DNA from: a virus
DNA length: 44,945 nucleotides
UHGV virus genome: UHGV-1372148
Reading direction: 5' to 3' (one strand)
This document shows, piece by piece, positions 4,533 to 44,945 of this stretch. The notes beneath the pieces are model-generated. The model had not been told where the DNA came from and ran no database searches. It saw only the letters and a program-made list of their open reading frames with translations. Made by a program: the position numbers and the translations under genes. Positions within the stretch are counted from its first letter, which is position 1, and the number at the start of each line of letters is the position of its first letter.

Positions 4533-5399
4533 TTAGTTTGGCTCGCGTAGTATTACAAGCGTTATCGTCGTGTCGAGCCACGGGCGGTCGTCGGGATAGA
4601 AGGCCGTCACTTGTGCGCTCTTGTAGTAGGCTTGGTAGTCTCGGTTACCGAGGTCACGCACGCGGATCGTGCGCGCCCCTGGACGTGTGAGGTCGTAGAG
4701 CAGGGCGTCGTAGTTGCGCCACAGCTCGGCGAACGTCTCGGCGCGGAAGTGCAGGCGCATCTTTACTTCCTTGCTCTTTTGTCTCACCGCCCCCCGCGCG
4801 TCGCCTATCACGCCGTGCGCCGTGGCGATGTTGCGCGTCAGTCCGACCTTGACGTCGGCACGTCGTGCGAACTCGGCCAGCGTCCCCTCGGTGACGCGCG
4901 CGCCATAGTCGGTGAGCGTCCAGCGGTCGACGAAGTAGTCGTAACTCTTCGGCACGCCGCTTGTGGGCGCTCTGTATGTGTAGCCTTTGAGAGGGTAGTC
5001 GTCGGCGAACTTGAGCGTCACGAAGCCGAGCGCCTGCGCTATCGTGAGGTTTGGCTCTCCGACGAGGCGAAGCGTGTACTCTCTACCGCCGAGGAACTGA
5101 AAACGAAATACCCGATACACACTCTGACGGAGGAAGGCGAGGAAGGCCTCGATCTTGGCTATCGTCTGCGGTGCGCCAAGCTCCCCCGTCGCACCTATCT
5201 TGATCGTCACCTCGCGGCCGTTGAGCCTCGGCGCGGAGAGGTCGGCGTCGATGCCCTCCTGCTCGTGCCAGTCGTTAGCCTCGACGGGCTTCAGTGGGGG
5301 ATAGGAGAGGAGGTCGTTCAGTCCTGTCTCGAGCGCAAAGACGCCGAAGCGGGCGAACGTATCGACGCCGTCGACGATGATACGAGCCGTGGCCGTCAT
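4533..5399 (-). CDS. Distal tail protein (Dit-like, phage tail family protein).
   Basis: 288 aa, positioned between the TMP and Tal. The N-terminus (TATARIIVDGVD...FGVFALETGLN) is typical of siphovirus Dit proteins. Confidence 0.55.
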   Translation of the reverse strand: MTATARIIVDGVDTFARFGVFALETGLNDLLSYPPLKPVEANDWHEQEGIDADLSAPRLNGREVTIKIGATGELGAPQTIAKIEAFLAFLRQSVYRVFRFQFLGGREYTLRLVGEPNLTIAQALGFVTLKFADDYPLKGYTYRAPTSGVPKSYDYFVDRWTLTDYGARVTEGTLAEFARRADVKVGLTRNIATAHGVIGDARGAVRQKSKEVKMRLHFRAETFAELWRNYDALLYDLTRPGARTIRVRDLGNRDYQAYYKSAQVTAFYPDDRPWLDTTITLVILREPN

Positions 5400-5890
5400 A
5401 GGATGATAGCGCTATCGTGTCGACGTGCCTCTACCAGCGAGGCCTCGTCGTGGCGTGGTCTGACGACCGCCCACTCGTAAGCGTCGACGGAAGCCGACGC
5501 ACCGTAGACGGCCGTTATCTTGTGGCACTTCGTACGTCGATACTCACCCGTCGCGTGCGTGTTGCCTACGAGGATAGCGTCGAGGGCGTCGTGCAGGTCG
5601 ATCTCTCCCGCGTCGATGTACACGCCGCACGCGTTGGGCAGGGCGTCCTTATACTCTCGGAATAGCTCGAGCGTAGGGAAGCCCGAGAGGAGCAGGAACT
5701 CCAGCCCCTCGATGCTGTGGAGCTTCGCCACGACCTCGGCGAGTGTCGTCTCCTCGCCCGTGAATACGTCGCAGGCACGCAGACGGCGTGCGAGGAGCAT
5801 ATCGCCATCGAGCCGTGCCGTGCGCTCTGCCTTGTTCTTCGCCTCGCGCCAGCCGTTGTAGAGGCGCGCGATGATCTTCTTCTCGTCCAT
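5396..5890 (-). CDS. Hypothetical protein between the tape measure and Dit (unusual position).
   Basis: 164-aa ORF that overlaps the Dit start by 4 bp and begins 13 bp after the TMP stop. No recognisable motif. Confidence 0.45.
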   Translation of the reverse strand: MDEKKIIARLYNGWREAKNKAERTARLDGDMLLARRLRACDVFTGEETTLAEVVAKLHSIEGLEFLLLSGFPTLELFREYKDALPNACGVYIDAGEIDLHDALDAILVGNTHATGEYRRTKCHKITAVYGASASVDAYEWAVVRPRHDEASLVEARRHDSAIIL

Positions 5891-5902
5891 TGTGTAGTGC
5901 TG

Positions 5903-8900
5903 TTATTTGATCTTTATGCCCGTTAGCGCTATCTCCTCGAGGGTGTCGCTCGTGCGCTTTGTCGTTGCTTCGATGCGTGCCATACGAGCGCCGAGGCCGT
6001 TAGTCTCGCTCTCGATATTGACGATGCTCTGAAGGATGAGGCCAGTCGTCGCCGTCAGCTGACGCGTATGCTCGGAGATCGTGAACGTGTGGCCTTGTAT
6101 GGCGGTCATACGGCCGTTAAGCTCGTCGATGCTATCCTGCGACGCCGTGGCGATGCCCTTCTGCGACGGCGTGCGCCCCTCGTCGCCGTTAGCGAACTTC
6201 TTTAAGCTGTCGTCGAGCGCGCCGTATACCTGCCCGAAGCTCTCGCCAATACGCCCTATCTCGGTGGCCATTTCGGCGGCCGAGCTATTCACGGCGTCGA
6301 TGCCTTTAAACGCGCCCTTCTCATTGAACCACTTCGACTTGTACTTATTGAATAGCTCCCCGAGCTGAGGCTCGAGGTACTTCGTCACGAGCATACGACG
6401 TACTATATCGCCGACGATCTCGTTCGTCTTCTTGTGCCATCCCTCCATAGCATCCTCGCCAGCCTTAGCGGCGTCGAAGAAGGCGTTACCGAGTTCGCTC
6501 GCGAGGCTCTCCGCCGAGCTCCCGATGATCTTCTCGAGAGGCTCGTTCAGTGCCTCGGCCATTTGGTTGCCGATCTCGGCCATCTTCTGCTTGTACTCCG
6601 CAACCTTCCCCTTATCGGTCTTCTTCTTCCCCTGCTCCGCCTCGATCTGCTCCTTAATGAGGAGCTGCTGTTTAGCGAGGTTCTCGAGCTTCGCGCGGCC
6701 GTCGTCCAGTCGTGCCTCGCCGAGGGCTTTGTTAGCCGTGTAGCTCATCTTCGCGTAGGCGTCGGCGATCTTCTCTACGGTCTTAGCGAAGATCTCCCCG
6801 CGGTTGCGAGCGACGGCGAACATGCGCTCCCACGTGCTACCCGTTGCGATGCTCTCCTTACGGAGTGCCATCACCTCGTCGCGTGTCGATGCGTAGAGGT
6901 CGCGCACCTTCTCGAGCGCGTCGCCGTACTCGGCGCTTAGACGCGTCGCACCCGTATTGGATAGCTCCCACTGGAGCTGGTCGATCTCGGCCTGCAGGCG
7001 CTCGATCTGCTTCTGCTTCTTCCCGTCGTTGTTAAAGAGGTTAGCTATCGCCGTGGCGACCTGCAGAGCGGCCGATATGACGGCCAGCACGACGGAGGCC
7101 TTCTCGACCATCGAGACGGCCGTAGCGCCTGCCGTGGCCGCTGCCGTAGCGCCAGCCGAGGCACTCTGCACCGTGTCCGCTACGCCCTTTGCGACGCTCT
7201 TACCGACGTCGCCGACGGCTTGTATCGCCGACGAGGTAGCGTCGATGACCTCGCCCGTGAAGTCTACGACCTGCGCCAGCCCATCGGCTACGTCCGTCGA
7301 GAAGACCGACGCGAGGAGCTTTGCCTTACCCCCGACGTCTTTAAGGACGCCGCCGACGTTGTGCAAGCTCGTAGTGAGATTAGCGTAGGAGGCCGTTATG
7401 CCATTGCGCGCCTGCATAGCACGACGCACCGCCTTGTCGCTCTCGTCCTGCGCCTTCGCCTGCACCTTCTGCGCCGCGGCGAGTTTCTCGTTAGCCTCGG
7501 CGATAGCGGCGAGGAACTCGGGCGTGGTGTGATCCTCGTGTGCGTCCTGTACGGCCGTCTTCTCACGCAGCGCCTCATTGTACGCGCGCTGTGCCTCGGT
7601 CAGTCGCTCCTGCGCGGCGACCATTGCACCGATAGCGTCGGAGTATTCCACCTTGGCGCGTGAGATGTCGCGGATAGCCTTATGTAGAGAGGCAAAGGGA
7701 TTGCGCCCTGCGATCTCCGCCTCCATATTCTTAATGGCCTCCTGATAGTCCTTGATCTCCTGCGTGGAGAGGACGCCCTTGTTGGCCTCGAAGTACTGGC
7801 GCACTCGTCCGAGTGTGTACTCGAGGACGGGCAGTGCCTGCTTCGTCAGATCGCCGAAGACGCTCTCCCAGTCGATAGCCTTGCGGAAGCGCTCGCTCGA
7901 GATCTTCGACAGCTCCTCGTCCATCTTCCGCACGGCCTCATCTTGGAACTCGACGGGCATCGTGGCGAGGCGCTTCGACCAGTCGCGCAGTAGCTTATCC
8001 TCCTTGTCTTGTATCGAGCCGAACTCGTCGATGAGTGCGTCGTGGTACTTCTCTTGTGCGGCCTTGATAGCGCGCTCGCCGTTGGCCGTCACCGCCTGCC
8101 ACATACTATCGTAGAGGCGTGCGATCTCGGGGCTATCCTTCGCGACGACTTCCTGCCAGTCCTTCGTCGTGCGCTTCCCCTCGGCGCTGTTTGCCCAGCC
8201 TACCTCGGTAGCGCCCTTCTTGCTCATGTAGATAGCCTTCGCCTCGGCCTTGCGCGCCTCGGCTATCGCTTCGTAGCGCTCGTTAAGGGCTTCGAGCTGC
8301 TTCTTCGTCCCTTGTCGGATCTCGTTAAGCTCACGCGTCAGCCCCGCCTCCTGCGCGTCGATAGCGAGCTTCGTTAGCTCGTCCTGCGCCTCCTTTATGT
8401 ACTTCTTTGCGTCCTTCGCGTAGGCCTCGCGCGCCAGTCTTTCCTCGAGTGCTGCCTTCGCAGGGTCGAACGTCCTCCCGCTCGTCTTGCTCTTCGTCGT
8501 GGTAGGGTCGACGTGTCCGCCGATATTAGCCGTCTGCTTCGTCTGCTCGGCGGCGGCGAAGGCCTTGCGGTAGGTGGCCTCGAGTTCGTCGGCCTCCTTT
8601 TGTAGCTTCTCGATAGCGCGCTTCTTCGTCAGCTCGTCGCGAGCGTCGGACGTGTACCAGCTACCATACTCGGCGGCCTTCTTGTTCTTAGCGTCTTGGA
8701 GCGCGATATAGGCCTCGGTGTATTTGGATAGTACCGCCTGCGCTTCCGCCTCGCGGAGCATCGTATTCGCATAGGCCTCTCCCTTCTCTTGCAGTACTCG
8801 CTTCCACTCGGCGGCGCTCTTGTAGTAGCCGAGAGCCTCGCCGTACTTACTGTTTAGCTCCTTGACGATCTGCTTCTCCTTATCCTTCGAGCCGCTATAA

Positions 8901-10234
8901 CGCTCGAGCTTCGCTTGGTAGTTGTCGATCTCGACCCGCGCCTTAATGTAGGCCTCGTTACCCTTCGACGTGATCTCGGCCATCTGCTTAGCCTTCTCCT
9001 CGGCCTCGGACGTGGCGGAGGCGAGGCTCGAGAGCCAGCCGACAAGCTCGCCGACGGCGACGATGAGCGCGCCGATACCCGTAGAGATAAGCGCGGCCTT
9101 GAGGCCTCGTAGCGCTATCGAGGCGGCGCGCGTCGCTACGGCCTGCGCCGTCGTGGCGGCCGTGGCGATGACGGTAGAGCCTGCCAGCGTGCGTTGTGCC
9201 GCGACACCCGTAGTAGCCGCCGTGTTGTTAGTCGCCTTGCTCGCCGTGTTGGCCGTCGTGGCGGCGGTGTTGGCTGTCGTGGCCACCGTCGACGCCGTCG
9301 TACTGACGGCCTCTTCGGACTGCTTCACGGCACTCTCGCCGAGGAGCTTATTCCATATCTTTTTTAGCGAGTTGAGGGTAACGAGTGTGAAGGCGCTATC
9401 CTTGTTAAGGGTCTGCTGGATCTGCTGTAAGCCCATCGTGATAGCCATCACGCTCTGTACGCGGAGCATTATCTGCTGGAGCTTCTCATTCTCCGCGCCG
9501 AACAGCCCCATAGCGCCCTGCGCCACGGCTGCCGCACCCGACAAGCCCGACAGCCCCGAGATAACGCCCTGCATGCCTCGCTGGTCGTGTGCGAGGATGT
9601 TCGCCTGCGCCGAGGCGTCAGACCACGCGTCGGTAAGGCGCGCGGCCTCGGCCTGCAACGCCTGATACTGCGCCGTGCCTCGTTGCCCTGCGGCCTCCAT
9701 CTCTACGAGTGCCGTCTTAATCTCACGCAGACGCTGGCGGAGCGAGACGTGCTTCTCTCCCGCCTGCTTTGCCTGCTCTCCCGTCGAGCGCAGGGCGTTC
9801 TCCTCCTTGTGCAGCTGGTCGGCCGTCGCCTCGATCTCGGCGAGGAGCTTCTTACGCGTTGCGATGAGCTGCTCGACGACCGCCTTCTGCTCGCGCAGTG
9901 CAGCCGCGCCCTTCGTGTCGCCTCGGCTCGTGGCCTTGCGTTGCTCCTCGGTGAGGCGTCGATACTCGGCCTCCAGCTCGGCGAGGCCTTGCTTATTAGA
10001 CGCGTACGTGCGGTCAAGGTCGGCGAACGCCTGCCCCAGCGTCTGCACCTGCTCCGAGAGCTGTGTGATGCCCTCCGAGCCCTTGCCGACGACAGCGCCG
10101 ACGCCACCCGAGGCGGCCTCTGCGACCGCCTTGTCTATATCGGTGAGTATCTGCTTCGCCTCCTCGGCGTCGCGGCGTAGTTCGCTCGTGTCTATTCCTA
10201 TGCCGTAGTAGCTCTTCCCGTCCTCGCTGTTCAT
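5903..10234 (-). CDS. Tail tape measure protein.
   Basis: 1443 aa, strongly alpha-helical and coiled-coil in composition (A/E/K/Q-rich) with Gly/Ala/Thr-rich hydrophobic central segments. It lies directly downstream of the frameshifted chaperone pair. Confidence 0.85.
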   Translation of the reverse strand: MNSEDGKSYYGIGIDTSELRRDAEEAKQILTDIDKAVAEAASGGVGAVVGKGSEGITQLSEQVQTLGQAFADLDRTYASNKQGLAELEAEYRRLTEEQRKATSRGDTKGAAALREQKAVVEQLIATRKKLLAEIEATADQLHKEENALRSTGEQAKQAGEKHVSLRQRLREIKTALVEMEAAGQRGTAQYQALQAEAARLTDAWSDASAQANILAHDQRGMQGVISGLSGLSGAAAVAQGAMGLFGAENEKLQQIMLRVQSVMAITMGLQQIQQTLNKDSAFTLVTLNSLKKIWNKLLGESAVKQSEEAVSTTASTVATTANTAATTANTASKATNNTAATTGVAAQRTLAGSTVIATAATTAQAVATRAASIALRGLKAALISTGIGALIVAVGELVGWLSSLASATSEAEEKAKQMAEITSKGNEAYIKARVEIDNYQAKLERYSGSKDKEKQIVKELNSKYGEALGYYKSAAEWKRVLQEKGEAYANTMLREAEAQAVLSKYTEAYIALQDAKNKKAAEYGSWYTSDARDELTKKRAIEKLQKEADELEATYRKAFAAAEQTKQTANIGGHVDPTTTKSKTSGRTFDPAKAALEERLAREAYAKDAKKYIKEAQDELTKLAIDAQEAGLTRELNEIRQGTKKQLEALNERYEAIAEARKAEAKAIYMSKKGATEVGWANSAEGKRTTKDWQEVVAKDSPEIARLYDSMWQAVTANGERAIKAAQEKYHDALIDEFGSIQDKEDKLLRDWSKRLATMPVEFQDEAVRKMDEELSKISSERFRKAIDWESVFGDLTKQALPVLEYTLGRVRQYFEANKGVLSTQEIKDYQEAIKNMEAEIAGRNPFASLHKAIRDISRAKVEYSDAIGAMVAAQERLTEAQRAYNEALREKTAVQDAHEDHTTPEFLAAIAEANEKLAAAQKVQAKAQDESDKAVRRAMQARNGITASYANLTTSLHNVGGVLKDVGGKAKLLASVFSTDVADGLAQVVDFTGEVIDATSSAIQAVGDVGKSVAKGVADTVQSASAGATAAATAGATAVSMVEKASVVLAVISAALQVATAIANLFNNDGKKQKQIERLQAEIDQLQWELSNTGATRLSAEYGDALEKVRDLYASTRDEVMALRKESIATGSTWERMFAVARNRGEIFAKTVEKIADAYAKMSYTANKALGEARLDDGRAKLENLAKQQLLIKEQIEAEQGKKKTDKGKVAEYKQKMAEIGNQMAEALNEPLEKIIGSSAESLASELGNAFFDAAKAGEDAMEGWHKKTNEIVGDIVRRMLVTKYLEPQLGELFNKYKSKWFNEKGAFKGIDAVNSSAAEMATEIGRIGESFGQVYGALDDSLKKFANGDEGRTPSQKGIATASQDSIDELNGRMTAIQGHTFTISEHTRQLTATTGLILQSIVNIESETNGLGARMARIEATTKRTSDTLEEIALTGIKIK

Positions 10235-10248
10235 CTGTATTTACCTTG

Positions 10249-10973
10249 TTAGTCTGCTTTATTGAATAGCTCGCGCAGCGCGTCTCTGTGCCTCTCGTCG
10301 CCCTCTCTGATAATCTCCTCGTCCTTCGCCTTATCCTTCGCCCCTTGGTAGCTCGGGATGACCGCACCGAGGAGGATAAGGTTAGGGTAGGACAACTCGT
10401 ATAGGACGTAGTCGACCTGGAAGTTATAGGCCTTGGCTATGCCTCCGACGATTGCCCATGGGCTGTCGTTTCTGTCGCCACTCCCCGCGTCGCCTTGGTT
10501 AGATTGACCTCGAGGAGGGAAGTGGTAGCGCCGAAAAAATCACCTATCTGCATATCGCGAAGCAGCTCGGAGATCAGTTGCCATAGGTCGCGCGGTGCGA
10601 GTGTCTCGAGGAGTTCGTCGGCCAGTTCGCGTTTGCGGTCGATCGTCCGCGTCGTGCGGTGGCGACGAAGGCCGAAGAGTGTACGCTCCTCGGTCGTGCG
10701 CTCCTCGGTCAAACCCTTAGCGCCGAGGATGAGGATAGCGAGGATGTCGCCCAGTACGCGGCAGTCCTTAGCGATGCGCAGCGTCTCCTCGACTATCCGC
10801 TCGTCGTCGAGACGCTCCTGCGGTAGTAGCGAGATTGCCTCCGAGGCGAGGATAAGCGTTGCTATCGTTGGCGGTGCGACGTTGTACGTCTTTCCCGCCA
10901 CCTCTATCTGTCGCGGTTGCTGTAGGAGCGTCGCGCCGACGCGCTGCTCTATTGTCTGCTGTTGTTCGCTCAT
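10249..10973 (-). CDS. Tail assembly chaperone -1 frameshift product (gpGT analogue); the frame changes at 10533-10539.
   Basis: After the slip at GAT TTT TTC the -1 frame stays open for about 95 codons (FFRRYHFPPRGQSNQGDAGSGDRNDSPWAIVGGIAKAYNFQVDYV...RELFNKAD) and stops at 10249-10251, 15 bp before the TMP start. The -1 frame has no ATG of its own. Confidence 0.5.
10437..10973 (-). CDS. Tail assembly chaperone (gpG analogue).
   Basis: 178-aa acidic ORF between the major tail protein and the TMP. It contains the slippery heptamer T_TTT_TTC 33 codons before its stop. Confidence 0.6.
   Translation of the reverse strand: MSEQQQTIEQRVGATLLQQPRQIEVAGKTYNVAPPTIATLILASEAISLLPQERLDDERIVEETLRIAKDCRVLGDILAILILGAKGLTEERTTEERTLFGLRRHRTTRTIDRKRELADELLETLAPRDLWQLISELLRDMQIGDFFGATTSLLEVNLTKATRGVATETTAHGQSSEA
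10533..10539 (-). promoter_or_regulatory. Programmed -1 ribosomal frameshift slippery site (mRNA sense TTTTTTC).
   Basis: An X_XXY_YYZ heptamer sits in the zero frame of the chaperone gene, with a long open -1 frame downstream. Confidence 0.5.
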
Positions 10974-36722: not shown

Positions 36723-36804
36723 CTGCAAAGGTAATACAAAATGTACTACTTGCAAATAGTAATACGTTGTTTTGTTTTACTCGGACTTGATAAAAGGCTG
36801 GTTT

Positions 36805-39273: not shown

Positions 39274-39409
39274 AAAAAAAACTTTTCCCAAATTTTGGTA
39301 GTACACAAAAATGTATTATCTTTGTAGTGTGAAAGGGGAACAACGAAGCCCCATCCACAAGATCGAACTATAAGTAACAACTAAAAGAGTAAACGAAAAT
39401 GGAAACGAA
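39274..39409 (+). repeat. Copy A of the ~130-bp duplicated promoter / 5'-leader / start-codon cassette.
   Basis: About 95 % identical to 41715-41848. Contains TTTG (39294-39297) and TAtcTTTG (39317-39324) 19 nt apart, a GGGG-N10-CCCC hairpin, then ATGGAAACGAA. Confidence 0.8.
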
Positions 39410-40242: not shown

Positions 40243-41388
40243 ATGGCTACCTCTAAAGACCCCGTGCGCCTGCGTCGGCGCACCACGCCCTCGGGGCGCA
40301 TATCACTCTACCTCGACATATACCACGAGGGATCGCGACGATACGAGTATCTAAAGCTCTACCTCGTCGCCGAGCGCACACGCGCCGATAAGGAAGCTAA
40401 CCGCGAGACACTCCAGCTCGCCGAGGCTATCCGAGCGAAGCGACTACTCGAACTACGTAACGGCCTCTACGGCTTCGCCACGGCCAAGCCTAAGGCGCGC
40501 TTCTTCGACTACTACTGCTCGCTCGTCGAGCAACGCCACGGCGACGAGAGCGAGGGGAACTGGAACAACTGGCGCTCCGCCCTTCACCACCTCCGCCATT
40601 ATGAACGACGGGAGAGTATCAAGCTCTCCGAGATCACGCCCGACTGGGTGCTGGGCTTTCGCGACTTCCTCCGCCACGACGCCCGCGCGTGGTCGGGGAA
40701 TTTTCGCAAACGCATAGACGACAAGCCCCTCGCGGTCAATAGTCAAGTATCGTATTTCAATAAGCTACGCGCCTGCCTCCGACAAGCCCACGAGGAGGGG
40801 CTGATCCCGAGCAACCCCGCCAAGGCCGTAGACGGAATAAAGGAAGAGGAGGCGACGCGTATGTATCTCACGATCGACGAGGTTCGCCTGCTGGCACAGA
40901 CTGAGTGCGCCTATCCTGGCATCAAGGCCGCGTTCCTCTTCTCCTGCCTCACGGGCTTGCGTCGCTCCGACATAACGCGCCTAACGTGGTCGGACGTCCA
41001 CACACACGGAGATTACACGCGTATCATCTTTCGTCAAAAGAAGACGCGCGGGCAGGAGTACCTCGATATTACCCCCGAGGCCGTCGAGCTTATGGGGGAG
41101 CGAGGACGCCCCGACGCGCTCGTTTTCCCCGACGTCCACACGGCTAACTGCACTAACAACGCTATACGCCTATGGGTGGCACGTGCGGGCATCGCAAAGG
41201 ACATTACCTTCCACTGCGCACGCCATACGTTCGCTACTATGATGCTCGACCTCGGGACGGACATATACACCGTGAGTAAGCTCCTCGGTCATCGCTTCCT
41301 CTCGACGACGCAGATATATGCGAAGGTGCTGGATAAGAGCAAGCAGGAGGCTGTGTCGTCGATACCCTCTATCCTCGGCGGTGAGTGA
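40243..41388 (+). CDS. Tyrosine integrase (site-specific recombinase, phage-integrase family).
   Basis: C-terminal catalytic region with R...HCARHTFATMM...LGHRFLSTTQIYAKV (R-H-R-Y pattern). Confidence 0.8.
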   Translation: MATSKDPVRLRRRTTPSGRISLYLDIYHEGSRRYEYLKLYLVAERTRADKEANRETLQLAEAIRAKRLLELRNGLYGFATAKPKARFFDYYCSLVEQRHGDESEGNWNNWRSALHHLRHYERRESIKLSEITPDWVLGFRDFLRHDARAWSGNFRKRIDDKPLAVNSQVSYFNKLRACLRQAHEEGLIPSNPAKAVDGIKEEEATRMYLTIDEVRLLAQTECAYPGIKAAFLFSCLTGLRRSDITRLTWSDVHTHGDYTRIIFRQKKTRGQEYLDITPEAVELMGERGRPDALVFPDVHTANCTNNAIRLWVARAGIAKDITFHCARHTFATMMLDLGTDIYTVSKLLGHRFLSTTQIYAKVLDKSKQEAVSSIPSILGGE

Positions 41389-41714
41389 CGTATTTTGCGT
41401 ATCTTTGCCGTTAGATGTTGCTCCAGTTGTTGCGCATCTGTTCGATCTGATAGGGGAGGCGCCGCCGTGTGCTTCCCCTATCTCTTCCCCTCCTCCCCGT
41501 GTAAACCATTTCGTTAACTCCAACGATATGGTTTAAAAGATCAAGGCCTCGACGCTGTTACACGCCGAGGCCTCTCTCTCATCTATCTACCTGCTAAAAC
41601 CCTGCGACTTAGGCGCTCCCGCGCATCCATCGCTGTATCAGTTTAATGAAGAACCGAAGCAAAGGTAGCTATACATTTCCATTTAACCAAATGGTTAAAT
41701 TTTCGGGTGGGCGG

Positions 41715-41848
41715 ACAAAAACTTTCGGTGAATTTTGGTAGTACACAAAAATGTATTATCTTTGTAGTGTGAAAGGGGAACAACGAAGCCCCGCCACAAG
41801 ATCGAACTACAAGTAACAACTAAAAGAGTAAACGAAAATGGAAACGAA
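41715..41848 (+). repeat. Copy B of the duplicated promoter / 5'-leader cassette.
   Basis: See copy A. The TTAACCAAATGGTTAA palindrome lies just upstream at 41683-41698. Confidence 0.8.
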
Positions 41849-42230
41849 AATGAACATCGAGGCTTTCGGGCTGACGTTTAAGAGAATTGACGACAAGAGC
41901 GGTGTCCGATACCAAGCTAAGGTGTATAAGGTAGCCGAGAGCGTAAATGATGTTAAGGGGGCGCTCCTCCACGTAATGTGTAAGGCGATAGATGCAGAAC
42001 CAATGGTTGTATCACATCCTTACGGCATATCAGTTCAGATCTCAGACGAGTACGACGGCTACCTCTACCCAATCATAGCGATATGCAAGCCTGCCGAAGA
42101 CGTCGCTGAGTGGCTCGGGAATTATTACCACGAAGTTGCCCGAGTGCTGGGGGACGGTACCGAGGTCCGATACGGTGTTCCCTACCGAACGGGGCTACCT
42201 TGCGAGGAGTACTGGGAAGACTGGGACTAA
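41838..42230 (+). CDS. Acidic small protein (second cassette cargo; lower GC).
   Basis: 130 aa starting METK from the shared cassette. Followed by the terminator CGCCCCGACT-N10-AGTCGGGGCG. Confidence 0.5.
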   Translation: METKMNIEAFGLTFKRIDDKSGVRYQAKVYKVAESVNDVKGALLHVMCKAIDAEPMVVSHPYGISVQISDEYDGYLYPIIAICKPAEDVAEWLGNYYHEVARVLGDGTEVRYGVPYRTGLPCEEYWEDWD

Positions 42231-42244
42231 CAAAGATAAAGATG

Positions 42245-42282
42245 CGCCCCGACTGCAGTAGGTAGTCGGGGCGTTCTCTTCA
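42245..42282 (+). terminator. Rho-independent-type terminator.
   Basis: 10-bp perfect GC-rich stem followed by TTCTCTTC. Confidence 0.5.
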
Positions 42283-42504
42283 TAAAAGAAGGGCGAGGAA
42301 GTCACACCTCCCCGCCCTTGTTAGACGTTGCGAGATTAAGCGAATAATCACGTACATCTGTGAGCATAAGCTCGTTTCAATTCAGCACCCCGAAGGGTGG
42401 ACACGTAGAAGCGTGCACTCATCTACACTGCAAATGTAGGGAAAGTTTTGATACCACCAAACACCCGCAGACCTTTTTCGTGAGGTCACGAAAATGCTCT
42501 CACG

Positions 42505-42969
42505 TTAGAGAAGCCCACGCAGTATCGGTAGCCACAACTTCCTCGACACCCACGCACCGAGGGCGATGGCAATAGCCAGCAGTGGGGCAAAGGCTTTGAG
42601 GCGCATAGCCTGCCACGCAGTGAGCTTGGCTGGTACTTCGACGTGCCTTGTGATAGTATGCACGACGCGCACGCTATCGACACGTCCTGCGTTGATAGTA
42701 TCGTGGACAACTCTATCTCTGTTGCGATAGACCTCCTTCGTCTTGTATATAGTGTCGCCTGCCTGCCTCTCGGTGACATACACGCTGTCGTGGATGTACA
42801 CGCTGTCTAACCGCCAGCGGTCTCGCCACTCTACGCGTCCGCGCCACTCTGTTCGGGTGTTCTCTACTGGGAGTACCCGTCGGGAGCAGGAGGTGAGGGC
42901 ATAGCCTATCAGTGCCACGGCTATGACAACAAGGAGCGTTTCCCACCAGCTTAGTCTATTTGTTTTCAT
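42505..42969 (-). CDS. Lipoprotein / membrane protein.
   Basis: N-terminal signal plus Cys (ALIGYALTSC) and a C-terminal hydrophobic helix. Confidence 0.45.
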   Translation of the reverse strand: MKTNRLSWWETLLVVIAVALIGYALTSCSRRVLPVENTRTEWRGRVEWRDRWRLDSVYIHDSVYVTERQAGDTIYKTKEVYRNRDRVVHDTINAGRVDSVRVVHTITRHVEVPAKLTAWQAMRLKAFAPLLAIAIALGAWVSRKLWLPILRGLL

Positions 42970-42974
42970 CGTAA

Positions 42975-43128
42975 ATCTTTGTTAAGTCTTTGATAGGTAG
43001 CCACAGCTTGCTACCTTTGTAGGAGAGAGGCGCTGGGGCTGGAGATTGGCTTTCAGATTTCGTACTCATAAATCCTATCCAGCCCCGCCTCTCTATGCGC
43101 CCTGCCGACTGGCGGGGCGCTTTCGTTT
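42975..43128 (+). ncRNA. Candidate small-RNA transcription unit: a Bacteroidetes promoter, then a long imperfect hairpin, then an intrinsic terminator.
   Basis: TTTG at 42989-42992 and TAccTTTG at 43012-43019, 19 nt apart. Stem GAGAGGCGCTGGGGCTGGA (43023-43044) pairs with TCCAGCCCCGCCTCTC (43078-43095). Terminator GCGCCCTGCC-N4-GGCGGGGCGC followed by TTTCGTTT. No ORF. Confidence 0.35.
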
Positions 43129-43336
43129 AGGGCTGAGCCTCGCCCTCTTCGGGCTTGGACTTAGCCTCGTCCTCCGCCTGCCACTTCACCTCTAAGGCGA
43201 GGGCTTCCTCTTCGGGCGTGAGTACCCAAAGGTCGGCCGCCTGCTGGTCGGGGCAGTAGAGGTAGTAGCCGATTAGTCGGTGGCTTCGGTTCACATAGGC
43301 GAAGCCGTCGGGAGCGATTAGTTCGATCATATCCAT
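43127..43336 (-). CDS. Small acidic protein immediately downstream of the fibre gene (possible fibre assembly chaperone).
   Basis: 69 aa; its ATG is 3 bp after the fibre stop. Confidence 0.35.
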   Translation of the reverse strand: MDMIELIAPDGFAYVNRSHRLIGYYLYCPDQQAADLWVLTPEEEALALEVKWQAEDEAKSKPEEGEAQP

Positions 43337-43338
43337 AG

Positions 43339-44945
43339 CTATCTAAAATTAAGTGTGAAGCCCTTGGCGGATGCCTTTTGGCTGTACTCTCGAGCCACTG
43401 CCGTGTGCGCCGTCTGCCAAGCTCTCGCAAGCGTGATAGACTTCCCCGTCACCTGCTGGAGGTTATCGACGAGGAATTTCACGCTCTCAACGGAGAGGTT
43501 GGCGCTATGCTGGAGATTGAGGTCTGCCTTGAGCCCCTTGATGCGCACCTCCTCCAAAGCCTCGCAGAGGTATAACATGTTGGTCGTTGCGGCGAGCTTT
43601 GAGAAGTCCAGCGTGCCGTTGATGCGTCGCAGGCGAGTGCAGCCGTTGAAGGCGTTATCTACCTTGGTCAGCGCATCGCCCGTGCCGAGCGTCACCTCCG
43701 TGAGCGACGAGCACTGCTGTGCTATCTGCGCTATATCGGTCACGTTGGGGGTCTCCCCGATGGTCAGCGTCTTAAGCGACGCACAGAGCGTGGCGAGGAG
43801 CGATAGCGTCGTGCATCGTGGCATTGCGCCTATCGTAATCGTCTCGAGTGCTGCGCACCCGTAGAAAGCACCTGATGCGAGAGCGACGGCGGGTAGGTCG
43901 GGGAGTGTTGCCGTAGTCATAGATGCGCACCCACTGCACATTTGGCTGATGTTCGAGATTTGCCCAGCGTTGCGGATCTCGGGGAGAACCTTAAGGGCTG
44001 ACGCGTTTGTAAACATACTATAGAAGTCTGCGGGATTGAACTCAGAGTAAACCTCGAGCGTCGGGAGGTAATCCGACTTAAAGCCGCTAAGCTGACGCAA
44101 CGCATACACGGGGAACACGTACACCTTAATCTCTTGGATCTTGCCCGCTAGGTCAGTTAGCCCGTCGGTGTCATCCACCGATACGCCCTTGGCACGCATG
44201 GCCGTGATGATTTCCCTGCGGTGGCCGTCTGCCTCCAGCAGTTGCGCTCCTGCGGTCGTGTTCTCGGGTGCGCTCTCGTCTGTGCCGTTGTTGATCTTGT
44301 AGAGTAGCTCTATCTCTGTTTTGTTCATACCTTCTTCGTTGCTTCCGTTGTTGCTTCTTGCGCTTGCCCACTCCTTCTCGGAGAGCTTGGGATTGTCTGT
44401 CGTGGTCTCAAGGTAGGATTGGTAGGCATTCTTCCCGTCCTTCCCCTTTAGGCTGGCGAGCCAATCAGCCTGCGAGCCTTGGTAGCCTCCTGCCTTAGCA
44501 AGCTCGTACGCACTCTTACCTGCATCGCCCTTGAGGCTCTCCAGCCACTCCTCACGTGAGCCTTGATACCCGCCAGCCTTGGCTACCTCGTAGGCATCCT
44601 TGCCGTCCGAGCCACGAAGGGACGCAAGCCACGCCTGCTCGTCACCTACGTAGCCATTGCGCACCGCCACCTTGTAGGCGCTTTCTCCGTCTGCTCCCTT
44701 GAGCGAGGCTATCCACTCCGTTAGGCTACCCTCGTAGCCCTCCGACTTAGCGAGTTCGTAGGCGGATAGCCCCGTCGCACCGATGAGGGTCTTTAACCAC
44801 TCCTCTCGGCTACCCGTGTAGCCCGCTTTCTTGGCGACTTCGTATGCATCTGCACCATCCTTGCCGACAAGGCTCTTTAGCCACTCTTGGAGCGTGCCTT
44901 GGTAGCCCTCTTGCACCGCCAGCTCGTAGGCGGACTTGCCGTTAC
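43339..44945 (-). CDS. C-terminal part of the wrap-around tail-fibre-like protein: eight 28-aa tandem repeats, then a BspA-type leucine-rich-repeat region.
   Basis: Repeats (K/R)G.DGKSAYE.AK..GY.GS..EWL.SL occur eight times. The C-terminal part has LRR-like segments (FNGCTRLRRINGTLDFSKL...EALEEVRIKGL). The ORF is open to the right edge of the window. Confidence 0.55.
   Translation of the reverse strand, partial: NGKSAYELAVQEGYQGTLQEWLKSLVGKDGADAYEVAKKAGYTGSREEWLKTLIGATGLSAYELAKSEGYEGSLTEWIASLKGADGESAYKVAVRNGYVGDEQAWLASLRGSDGKDAYEVAKAGGYQGSREEWLESLKGDAGKSAYELAKAGGYQGSQADWLASLKGKDGKNAYQSYLETTTDNPKLSEKEWASARSNNGSNEEGMNKTEIELLYKINNGTDESAPENTTAGAQLLEADGHRREIITAMRAKGVSVDDTDGLTDLAGKIQEIKVYVFPVYALRQLSGFKSDYLPTLEVYSEFNPADFYSMFTNASALKVLPEIRNAGQISNISQMCSGCASMTTATLPDLPAVALASGAFYGCAALETITIGAMPRCTTLSLLATLCASLKTLTIGETPNVTDIAQIAQQCSSLTEVTLGTGDALTKVDNAFNGCTRLRRINGTLDFSKLAATTNMLYLCEALEEVRIKGLKADLNLQHSANLSVESVKFLVDNLQQVTGKSITLARAWQTAHTAVAREYSQKASAKGFTLNFR

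Follow-up and report, generated by a model that had tools for sequence, protein, structure and literature searches.

Solitary repeat units (SRUs) of CRISPR (clustered regularly interspaced short palindromic repeat) systems have been described bioinformatically, and they act as RNA anti-CRISPRs (Racrs), among them RacrIF1 and RacrIC1, for several single-guide types (Camara-Wilpert et al. 2023, PMC10651486). The supplement to PMC10651486 lists type II-C SRU candidates in IMG/VR viruses. A phage small RNA (sRNA), rAcrIIA1, mimics a whole single-guide RNA (sgRNA) and inhibits type II-A Cas9, and the existence of RNA inhibitors of Cas9 was previously unknown according to the same preprint (10.64898/2026.06.03.729762). 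Here we consider the virus genome UHGV-1372148, analyzed as a whole stretch of 44,945 nt (the window, to which all coordinates refer unless another contig is named). An intergenic unit beside a lipoprotein gene in this genome is, on balance, probably a phage gene for an sRNA of roughly 100 nt whose core would be a diverged, solitary copy of a host type II-C repeat, making it a candidate Racr. Its most likely role, judged by comparison with related phages and host loci, is that of an RNA decoy directed against host Cas9 immunity rather than that of a regulator of the lipoprotein gene.

The locus resembles SRUs and Racrs in that a single repeat-like sequence is placed between genes of a (pro)phage, with a promoter directly before it and no adjacent cas genes; its subtype is also that of a system by which the phage is targeted, and the terminal stem of the repeat is preserved. 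It differs in that validated Racrs bind Cas6, Cas7, Cas5 or Cas12a of single-guide systems, whereas a type II mimic faces the trans-activating CRISPR RNA (tracrRNA). Furthermore, the phage mimic is only about 76% identical to the repeat and would be missed by the published 90% cut-off, and it sits in an extra GC-clamped hairpin with a terminator of its own. Neither the phage sequence nor the contig identifiers that were tried had a match in the examined portion of the PMC10651486 supplement. Like the phage RNA, rAcrIIA1 is a phage sRNA with 5' homology to the CRISPR RNA (crRNA) repeat of a Cas9 system, but it carries 3' homology to tracrRNA and binds Cas9 directly, while the 3' part of the phage RNA has nothing in common with tracrRNA except a generic terminator. 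Lacking a tracrRNA-like tail, the phage RNA therefore could not work by the rAcrIIA1 mechanism and would have to need or sponge the host tracrRNA. The targets also differ, being type II-A for rAcrIIA1 and type II-C for the system cognate to the phage RNA. Viral crRNA-like regulatory RNAs (Cracrs; 10.1101/2024.10.29.618823) and the natural scaRNA and tracr-L are similar in being repeat-derived RNAs outside an array that could load a host Cas effector, but in them a partial spacer directed at a cas or toxin promoter is conserved, whereas the phage leader is variable and without a conserved target. The unit is probably a diverged addition to the SRU/Racr kind, with a mechanism that may be distinct.

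Homology to a type II-C repeat and its Cas9 system

The resemblance of the hairpin loop to the 47-nt type II-C repeat of Bacteroides fragilis (PMC6390457) served as the lead; that repeat by itself scored a non-significant 12 against the window. Metagenome contigs were scanned with TGATTNGCTTTCANATTTCG, a pattern derived from the loop whose initial T excludes the phage copy (AGATT). At least 120 metagenome stretches were matched, and about 31 of these were arrays with a 78-nt period and a 48-nt consensus repeat, GCTGTGATTAGCTTTCAGATTTCGTACCTTCATACTTGCTAATACAGC. Positions 43038 to 43083 of the window align to this repeat with 37 of 49 columns identical, including a 17-nt identical block, and 21 of the 28 columns that fall outside the search pattern are also identical. 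The local score of the unit against the repeat was 26; the second-best site in the window reached 15, and random 400-nt windows gave 8.8 ± 1.3. The array repeat and the phage copy are nearly equal in length and have a GCTG start and a CAGC end in common, and comparison of their folds by eye indicates that the phage copy has retained the repeat's terminal stem through two-sided changes, U-A to G-C and A-U to G-C. This homology is visible only through sequences from outside the window.

The phage copy lies in sense orientation behind the promoter and upstream of a plus-strand terminator. Its neighbors are genes for the lipoprotein, a 69-aa protein, a leucine-rich repeat (LRR) tail protein and an integrase, with no adjacent cas genes. 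The unit can be called solitary because its ±400-nt flanks score at background (6-9) both against the repeat and against the unit itself. A CRISPR mini-array was rejected on the same sequence, as this would need at least two repeats around a spacer and there is one repeat-like unit only. Other viral contigs bearing the core motif were considered as further SRUs and rejected; they proved to be host arrays, tracrRNA loci or chance matches in coding sequence. A literature search for the repeat or core sequence found nothing relevant.

The array in one contig (L200) is contiguous with cas2 (PF09827), cas1 (PF01867) and a cas9 of 1192 aa (RuvC_III, HNH, Cas9_a), plus a tracrRNA; a second contig (L203) has the same elements with a cas9 of 1216 aa. 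From the cas9-cas1-cas2 layout without a fourth gene, the system is assigned to type II-C. The tracrRNA gene is divergent from cas9, is conserved in 38 loci, and consists of a TACATTTG promoter box, the anti-repeat ACGAAATCTGAAAGCTAATCACA, a nexus-like AAGGATTTATTCC and a terminator. Two of the Cas9 proteins are labeled by NCBI as coming from "Porphyromonadaceae bacterium" and "Porphyromonas sp." metagenome-assembled genomes (MAGs), in agreement with the promoter type of the phage and with the occurrence of distant lipoprotein homologues in Bacteroidales MAGs.

Spacers of these arrays match the phage family. Counting as a match at least 27 nt aligned with no more than 3 mismatches, 42 of the 386 unique spacers from 33 arrays hit the family and 14 hit the window, the latter distributed across 11.6-42.4 kb. 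A bias is seen in the 3' flanks of the protospacers, where position 2 is A in 27/42, position 5 is A or C in 39/42 and position 6 is C or T in 37/42, and the 5' flanks show no bias. This is what a protospacer adjacent motif (PAM) of a type II system would produce and suggests a provisional PAM. As a separate observation on the cognate cas9, the gene is cut short at residue 1138 in a contig of a Porphyromonadaceae MAG (L277; GCA_015262915.1, JABZRV010000022.1, positions 4730-10735 of that contig). What follows there are genes for a phage tail (baseplate hub), together with a homologue of window 43166-43551; the contig holds either a related prophage in cas9 or a chimera, with no integrase at the junction.

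Layout, conservation and tracrRNA complementarity of the element

The unit occupies the 157-bp gap between the lipoprotein gene (42505-42969, minus strand) and the 69-aa gene (43127-43336, minus strand), and the T-run of its terminator overlaps the stop codon of the latter. Its parts are listed in Table 1. Transcription would start at about 43024-43027, giving a predicted plus-strand RNA that spans about 43025-43128, or some 100 nt. The promoter belongs to a class with the motif TTTG-N18-21-TAnnTTTG, of which the window holds 7 against 0.10 expected; the window's promoters are of the Bacteroidetes type. The long hairpin (43024-43094, 71 nt) has an outer stem of 8 bp, a bulge of 3 nt, an inner stem of 9 bp and an apical region of about 33 nt, and a 121-nt RNA folds at -58.6 kcal/mol (z -4.4), with none of 200 shuffles folding as well. 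The terminator, with a 10-bp GC stem, is the top terminator-like match of the region. The phage is temperate, with an integrase gene at 40243-41388.

Table 1. Features of the repeat-like unit in UHGV-1372148, in window coordinates.
Feature	Position	Strand	Details
Bacteroidetes-type promoter	42989-43019	+	-33 TTTG 42989-42992, 19-nt spacer, -7 TACCTTTG 43012-43019
Palindrome GGTAGC-N8-GCTACC in promoter spacer	42996-43015	strandless	candidate operator
5' leader and GC-clamp 5' arm, AGAGAGGCGCTGGG	43024-43037	+	pairs with 43084-43094 (fold)
Solitary CRISPR-repeat-like unit (SRU), 46 nt, GCTGGAGATTGGCTTTCAGATTTCGTACTCATAAATCCTATCCAGC	43038-43083	+	alignment to array repeat
Core complementary to host tracrRNA anti-repeat, GATTGGCTTTCAGATTTCGT	43044-43063	+	20 contiguous pairs, one G·U
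GC-clamp 3' arm, CCCGCCTCTCT	43084-43094	+	fold; variants GCCTCTCT and TTCCTCTC
Intrinsic terminator	43097-43128	+	stem-loop 43097-43120 then TTTCGTTT; terminator scan

To follow the element among relatives, 73 loci were gathered from viral contigs by lipoprotein and 69-aa protein searches; 39 distinct element variants entered the counts of variation and 37 the comparison of terminator strands. The same element fills the gap in 35 of 47 lipoprotein loci. In 11 of the 47, an unrelated hairpin in a gap of about 50 nt stands in its place, and in most of these the next operon gene follows 8 nt after the lipoprotein gene; one further locus (L045) has an unrelated upstream region. Every lipoprotein-selected locus having the element carries the core GGAGATTGGCTTTCRGRTTTCGT, and the invariance of the core is therefore not an artefact of selecting on it. 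The core occurs once per contig in 45 viral contigs, with the gene order around the element intact in all of them. No comparable element was found upstream of the distant lipoprotein homologues in Paludibacteraceae and Alistipes MAGs, and the element had no match in a distant blastn search of GenBank phages. The exact 23-mer core had 0 matches in 185,579 species-representative genomes. Rfam gave no match at gathering thresholds over the whole window and only chance-level matches (15-17 bits) at E ≤ 10 over 41380-43200, and a tRNA and tmRNA search found none.

Where present, the element is more conserved than the genes on either side. Most 15-nt bins of the element have a nucleotide diversity of 0.004-0.13 (0.21 and 0.28 in two bins), compared to 0.1-0.5 in flanking coding sequence. 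The promoter motif is found with its 19-nt spacer in 39/39 variants. Promoter spacers are normally without sequence constraint, yet the palindrome in this one is near-invariant (pi 0.037) and may bind a regulator, by analogy with Aca-controlled anti-CRISPR promoters. The 25-nt block 43039-43063 is invariant or nearly so in all variants, while bases 43064-43072 are variable, with indels. Within the RNA, variation is greatest in the leader: the 16 nt upstream of the repeat-like unit exist in 16 variants, and the leader is therefore unlikely to be a guide sequence. One locus (L095, 7318-7540), in which the element runs into unrelated sequence of about 70% G+C ending in poly-G, was judged an assembly chimera.

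Conservation also bears on the strand. The terminator stem is more stable on the plus strand in 36/37 variants (mean -19.6 vs -14.7 kcal/mol), because its two G·U pairs turn into A·C mismatches on the minus strand; the pair types recorded for it are U·G, G·U, U-A and A-U. No such preference is shown by the long hairpin, whose stability is the same on both strands. A covariation analysis with RNAalifold found 0 double-compensated pairs in a family that is too closely related, and for that reason the structural support comes from thermodynamics and the G·U strand asymmetry. A 37-aa minus-strand open reading frame (ORF) that starts in the loop (42956-43069) was rejected as a gene, being frameshifted in about 12 of 39 variants and having lost its ATG in 5 of 39. 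A target in trans inside the phage was also rejected, since only chance-level 9-12-mers complementary to the RNA were present.

The unit had come to attention through a preliminary description made from the letters of the window alone, and much of what it reported holds. The well-spaced TTTG / TAccTTTG promoter, the long imperfect hairpin with a loop of about 33 nt, the GC stem followed by a T-run, and the position in a 157-bp gap between two minus-strand genes, overlapping the stop of the 69-aa gene, were all found as described. Its central proposal of an independent, non-coding plus-strand small RNA without an ORF is supported by the conserved promoter, the strand-specific stability of the terminator and the lack of a conserved ORF, and the motif it pointed to recurs in relatives. 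Of the folding and covariation analysis that it put forward, folding returned a stable structure and covariation gave no support, the relatives being too close.

The core may owe its conservation to pairing with the host tracrRNA. The predicted duplex of SRU and tracrRNA has an energy of -36.4 kcal/mol, where the native repeat reaches -39.7 and shuffles reach -21.7 ± 3.4, and the tracrRNA-pairing segment 43044-43063 is contained in the invariant block. It is the plus-strand RNA that is complementary to the anti-repeat, because the tracrRNA fixes the sense of the repeat and the phage copy shares that sense. Only two substitutions were seen in the core, A43055G (L094) and A43057G (L114), and at 43048 the mimic has G where the native repeat has A. 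All three differences face a U of the tracrRNA, so that each makes a G·U pair in the plus-strand RNA and would be a C·A mismatch for a minus-strand RNA. From this G·U pattern and the invariant pairing core, we infer that the plus-strand RNA has been selected for tracrRNA pairing.

Proposed mechanism and alternative explanations

In the mechanism that we propose, the RNA would be made from the prophage or early in infection and would present the 5' half of the repeat in the apical region of its GC-clamped hairpin. There it could pair with host tracrRNA, either free or on Cas9, and tracrRNA and/or Cas9 would be diverted from real crRNAs into complexes without an anti-phage guide. This would carry the Racr principle of PMC10651486 over to a dual-RNA system. 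The expected outcome is lower interference against the phage together with less autoimmunity in lysogens, and the decisive partner could be tracrRNA, Cas9 or RNase III. More tentatively, and at less than even chances, this may amount to a new mode of RNA anti-CRISPR, a "tracrRNA sponge", in which a clamped repeat mimic showing 20 anti-repeat-complementary nt apically either captures tracrRNA or enters Cas9 together with it, as a guide-less, mis-registered crRNA. Such a crRNA-only mimic against type II-C would be distinct from Cas6- and Cas7-binding Racrs and from rAcrIIA1, and would sit in a counter-defence spot that holds a Cas2 homologue in sister phages.

Several points weigh against the decoy. 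Expression of the RNA is a prediction, and the host is a putative one, assigned only from spacer matches and promoter type. With about 76% identity to the closest repeat found, the unit lies below the SRUFinder cut-off (at least 90% identity and at least 90% coverage), and in the Racr literature examined no type II-C SRU is reported to inhibit Cas9. When phage RNA and tracrRNA are folded together, the clamped hairpin (the full RNA folds at -57 kcal/mol) remains shut instead of opening to pair with tracrRNA, and pairing would therefore depend on a protein or on invasion that starts from the loop. The mimic departs from the repeat in its guide-proximal 6-7 nt (GCTGGAGATT vs GCTGTGATT), so that any complex formed is expected to be aberrant. 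A tracrRNA-like 3' part is absent, as nothing in 43064-43128 matches; the best local alignment of the tracrRNA tail in the whole window scores 14 and falls at a terminator elsewhere.

The preliminary description had seen the unit as antisense to the upstream region of the lipoprotein gene, as a regulator or attenuator-like element. Developed further, this would be a cis-antisense RNA on a late polycistronic transcript that tunes the lipoprotein (spanin-like) gene through RNase III or transcriptional interference. The RNA does complement the intercistronic region perfectly, only 20 nt separate its promoter from the lipoprotein ATG, and the lack of a canonical minus-strand promoter for the lipoprotein gene means that the region is probably transcribed from upstream. 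Lambda OOP and P22 sar are phage cis-antisense sRNAs that overlap the coding or initiation region of their targets and are not homologous to host immune RNAs; the unit is like them in being a short, terminator-ended transcript convergent with a phage operon. However, it ends 56 nt upstream of the lipoprotein ATG (42969), leaving the translation initiation region uncovered and overlapping only the stop codon of the 69-aa gene, and relatives have an 85%-identical lipoprotein gene, tight in its operon, without the element, which is also absent from distant homologues. The role requires neither an invariant sequence nor a match to a CRISPR repeat, and it leaves the invariance of the core unexplained because an antisense RNA complements its target whatever the sequence; complementarity to tracrRNA does explain the core. 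We consider cis-antisense control an unlikely function of the unit, though it could be a side effect. A functional minus strand, on which the anti-repeat in a late mRNA pairs with pre-crRNA repeats and blocks their maturation or loading, is also judged quite unlikely. This strand is very probably transcribed with the late operon, has no U-tract after its hairpins, contains ACGAAATCTGAAAGCCAATC, which is complementary to every array repeat, and folds the long hairpin as stably as the plus strand does. Nevertheless, promoter and terminator are conserved on the plus strand, the three core differences keep pairing only in the plus-strand RNA, late expression would be ill-timed for shielding incoming DNA, and the minus-strand RNA would be without a nexus or other tracrRNA-like tail.

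It is very improbable that the unit encodes a guide-bearing, crRNA-like RNA, analogous to a Cracr/crlRNA, scaRNA or tracr-L, whose leader of about 12 nt directs repression by Cas9 without cutting. At about 12-14 nt, the leader has a length in the range for Cas9 binding without cleavage. Viral crlRNAs that silence cas genes have precedent in types V-A, I-E and I-F (preprint 10.1101/2024.10.29.618823). The leader of the phage RNA, on the other hand, is its most variable part and is sequestered in the outer stem, and about 0.5 Mb of host CRISPR-cas loci contain only sporadic 10-12-mer matches to it, none of them conserved. We give equally little credence to a non-functional relic of an array fragment or a recombination site for integration into arrays. 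SRUs have been suggested to enable array integration (PMC10651486), the phage is temperate by its integrase gene (40243-41388), and in one MAG contig (L277) phage genes adjoin a truncated cas9. Against this, the element outconserves its neighboring genes and has its own promoter and terminator, the gene order is intact in all 45 contigs, a phage junction is present in none of about 30 arrays, and the unit is separated from the integrase gene by 1.6 kb with genes between.

Neighborhood of the element and significance

The window represents a phage genome of about 45 kb in circularly permuted form; a terminal repeat was not found. A 45,064-nt ENA contig gives the order endolysin, 706-aa LRR protein, 69-aa gene and lipoprotein, then on the other strand the 130-aa gene and integrase. 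The 525-aa ORF at the window end (43339-44916, minus strand) corresponds to the gene for a 706-aa BspA-type LRR tail protein in a near-identical contig (L265). Genes for a holin (1048-1494) and an M15 endolysin (604-1044) lie upstream of the lipoprotein gene on the same strand of the circular map. The lipoprotein has an LTSC lipobox, an invariant Cys28 and a conserved C-terminal transmembrane helix, and belongs to no Pfam or PHROG family. In distant relatives its gene directly follows one that resembles a cell-wall hydrolase, as judged by eye from the translation. Its features make the lipoprotein a candidate unimolecular spanin.

Two further promoter-terminator units were noted. One lies downstream of the lipoprotein gene (42285-42461, minus strand; promoter 42461-42431, terminator 42319-42289), with no convincing ORF and a predicted RNA of about 140 nt that folds at -55.5 kcal/mol (z -3.8). 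It is about 90% conserved, occurs only in relatives that have the repeat mimic, and is matched by one host spacer at 42356-42385; compared with the repeat, with the tracrRNA and with the A. shahii repeat, it showed no similarity. The other lies between the integrase and 130-aa genes (41543-41691, minus strand; promoter 41691-41660, terminator 41574-41543), with a predicted RNA of about 110 nt and no ORF, and may overlap attP. Identical 31-nt promoters, TTTGGTAGTACACAAAAATGTATTATCTTTG, flank the integrase gene at 39294-39324 and 41734-41764 (plus strand), and a related one is found at 36726-36756 (minus strand). The three have in common a partial palindrome, GTAGTACA...TGTATTA, and these sites are probably operators of one repressor.

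Downstream of the promoter at 41734-41764, and 0.8 kb from the repeat mimic, a 130-aa acidic protein is encoded at 41838-42230 (plus strand) with a terminator at about 42245-42274. Pfam and PHROG offer no relative for it and PDB none that is meaningful, and a PDB sequence search with the 130-aa and 69-aa proteins for relatives of known anti-CRISPR proteins found none; given its position, the 130-aa protein could be considered as a candidate protein anti-CRISPR. Sister phages without the mimic encode a 105-aa Cas2 homologue between the lipoprotein and integrase genes (L039, 3674-3991, minus strand; same region of L037). It is 32% identical to host Cas2 over 88 residues (tblastn E about 7e-9), and the L200 gene it matches falls in the Pfam family CRISPR_Cas2. 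This homologue may be a Cas-derived anti-CRISPR that acts on adaptation, and the shared neighborhood of mimic and Cas2 homologue suggests a counter-defence hotspot.

The reading of the unit as an antisense regulator of the lipoprotein gene, attractive but wrong, is corrected by these comparisons. Validated RNA anti-CRISPRs exist for single-guide systems and, according to one 2026 preprint, for type II-A Cas9 by mimicry of a whole sgRNA, and type II-C solitary repeats are only catalogue entries in the literature examined. The components for a direct test are available as sequence: the phage RNA with its 39 variants found in nature; Cas9, tracrRNA and repeat of the cognate system; a provisional PAM; and natural spacers against the phage. 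If the RNA is active, homology cut-offs of at least 90% would be shown to miss diverged mimics, and a compact, sequence-programmable off-switch for Bacteroidales Cas9 would be at hand. Activity would also reveal by what means a mimic of the repeat alone can disable a dual-RNA system.

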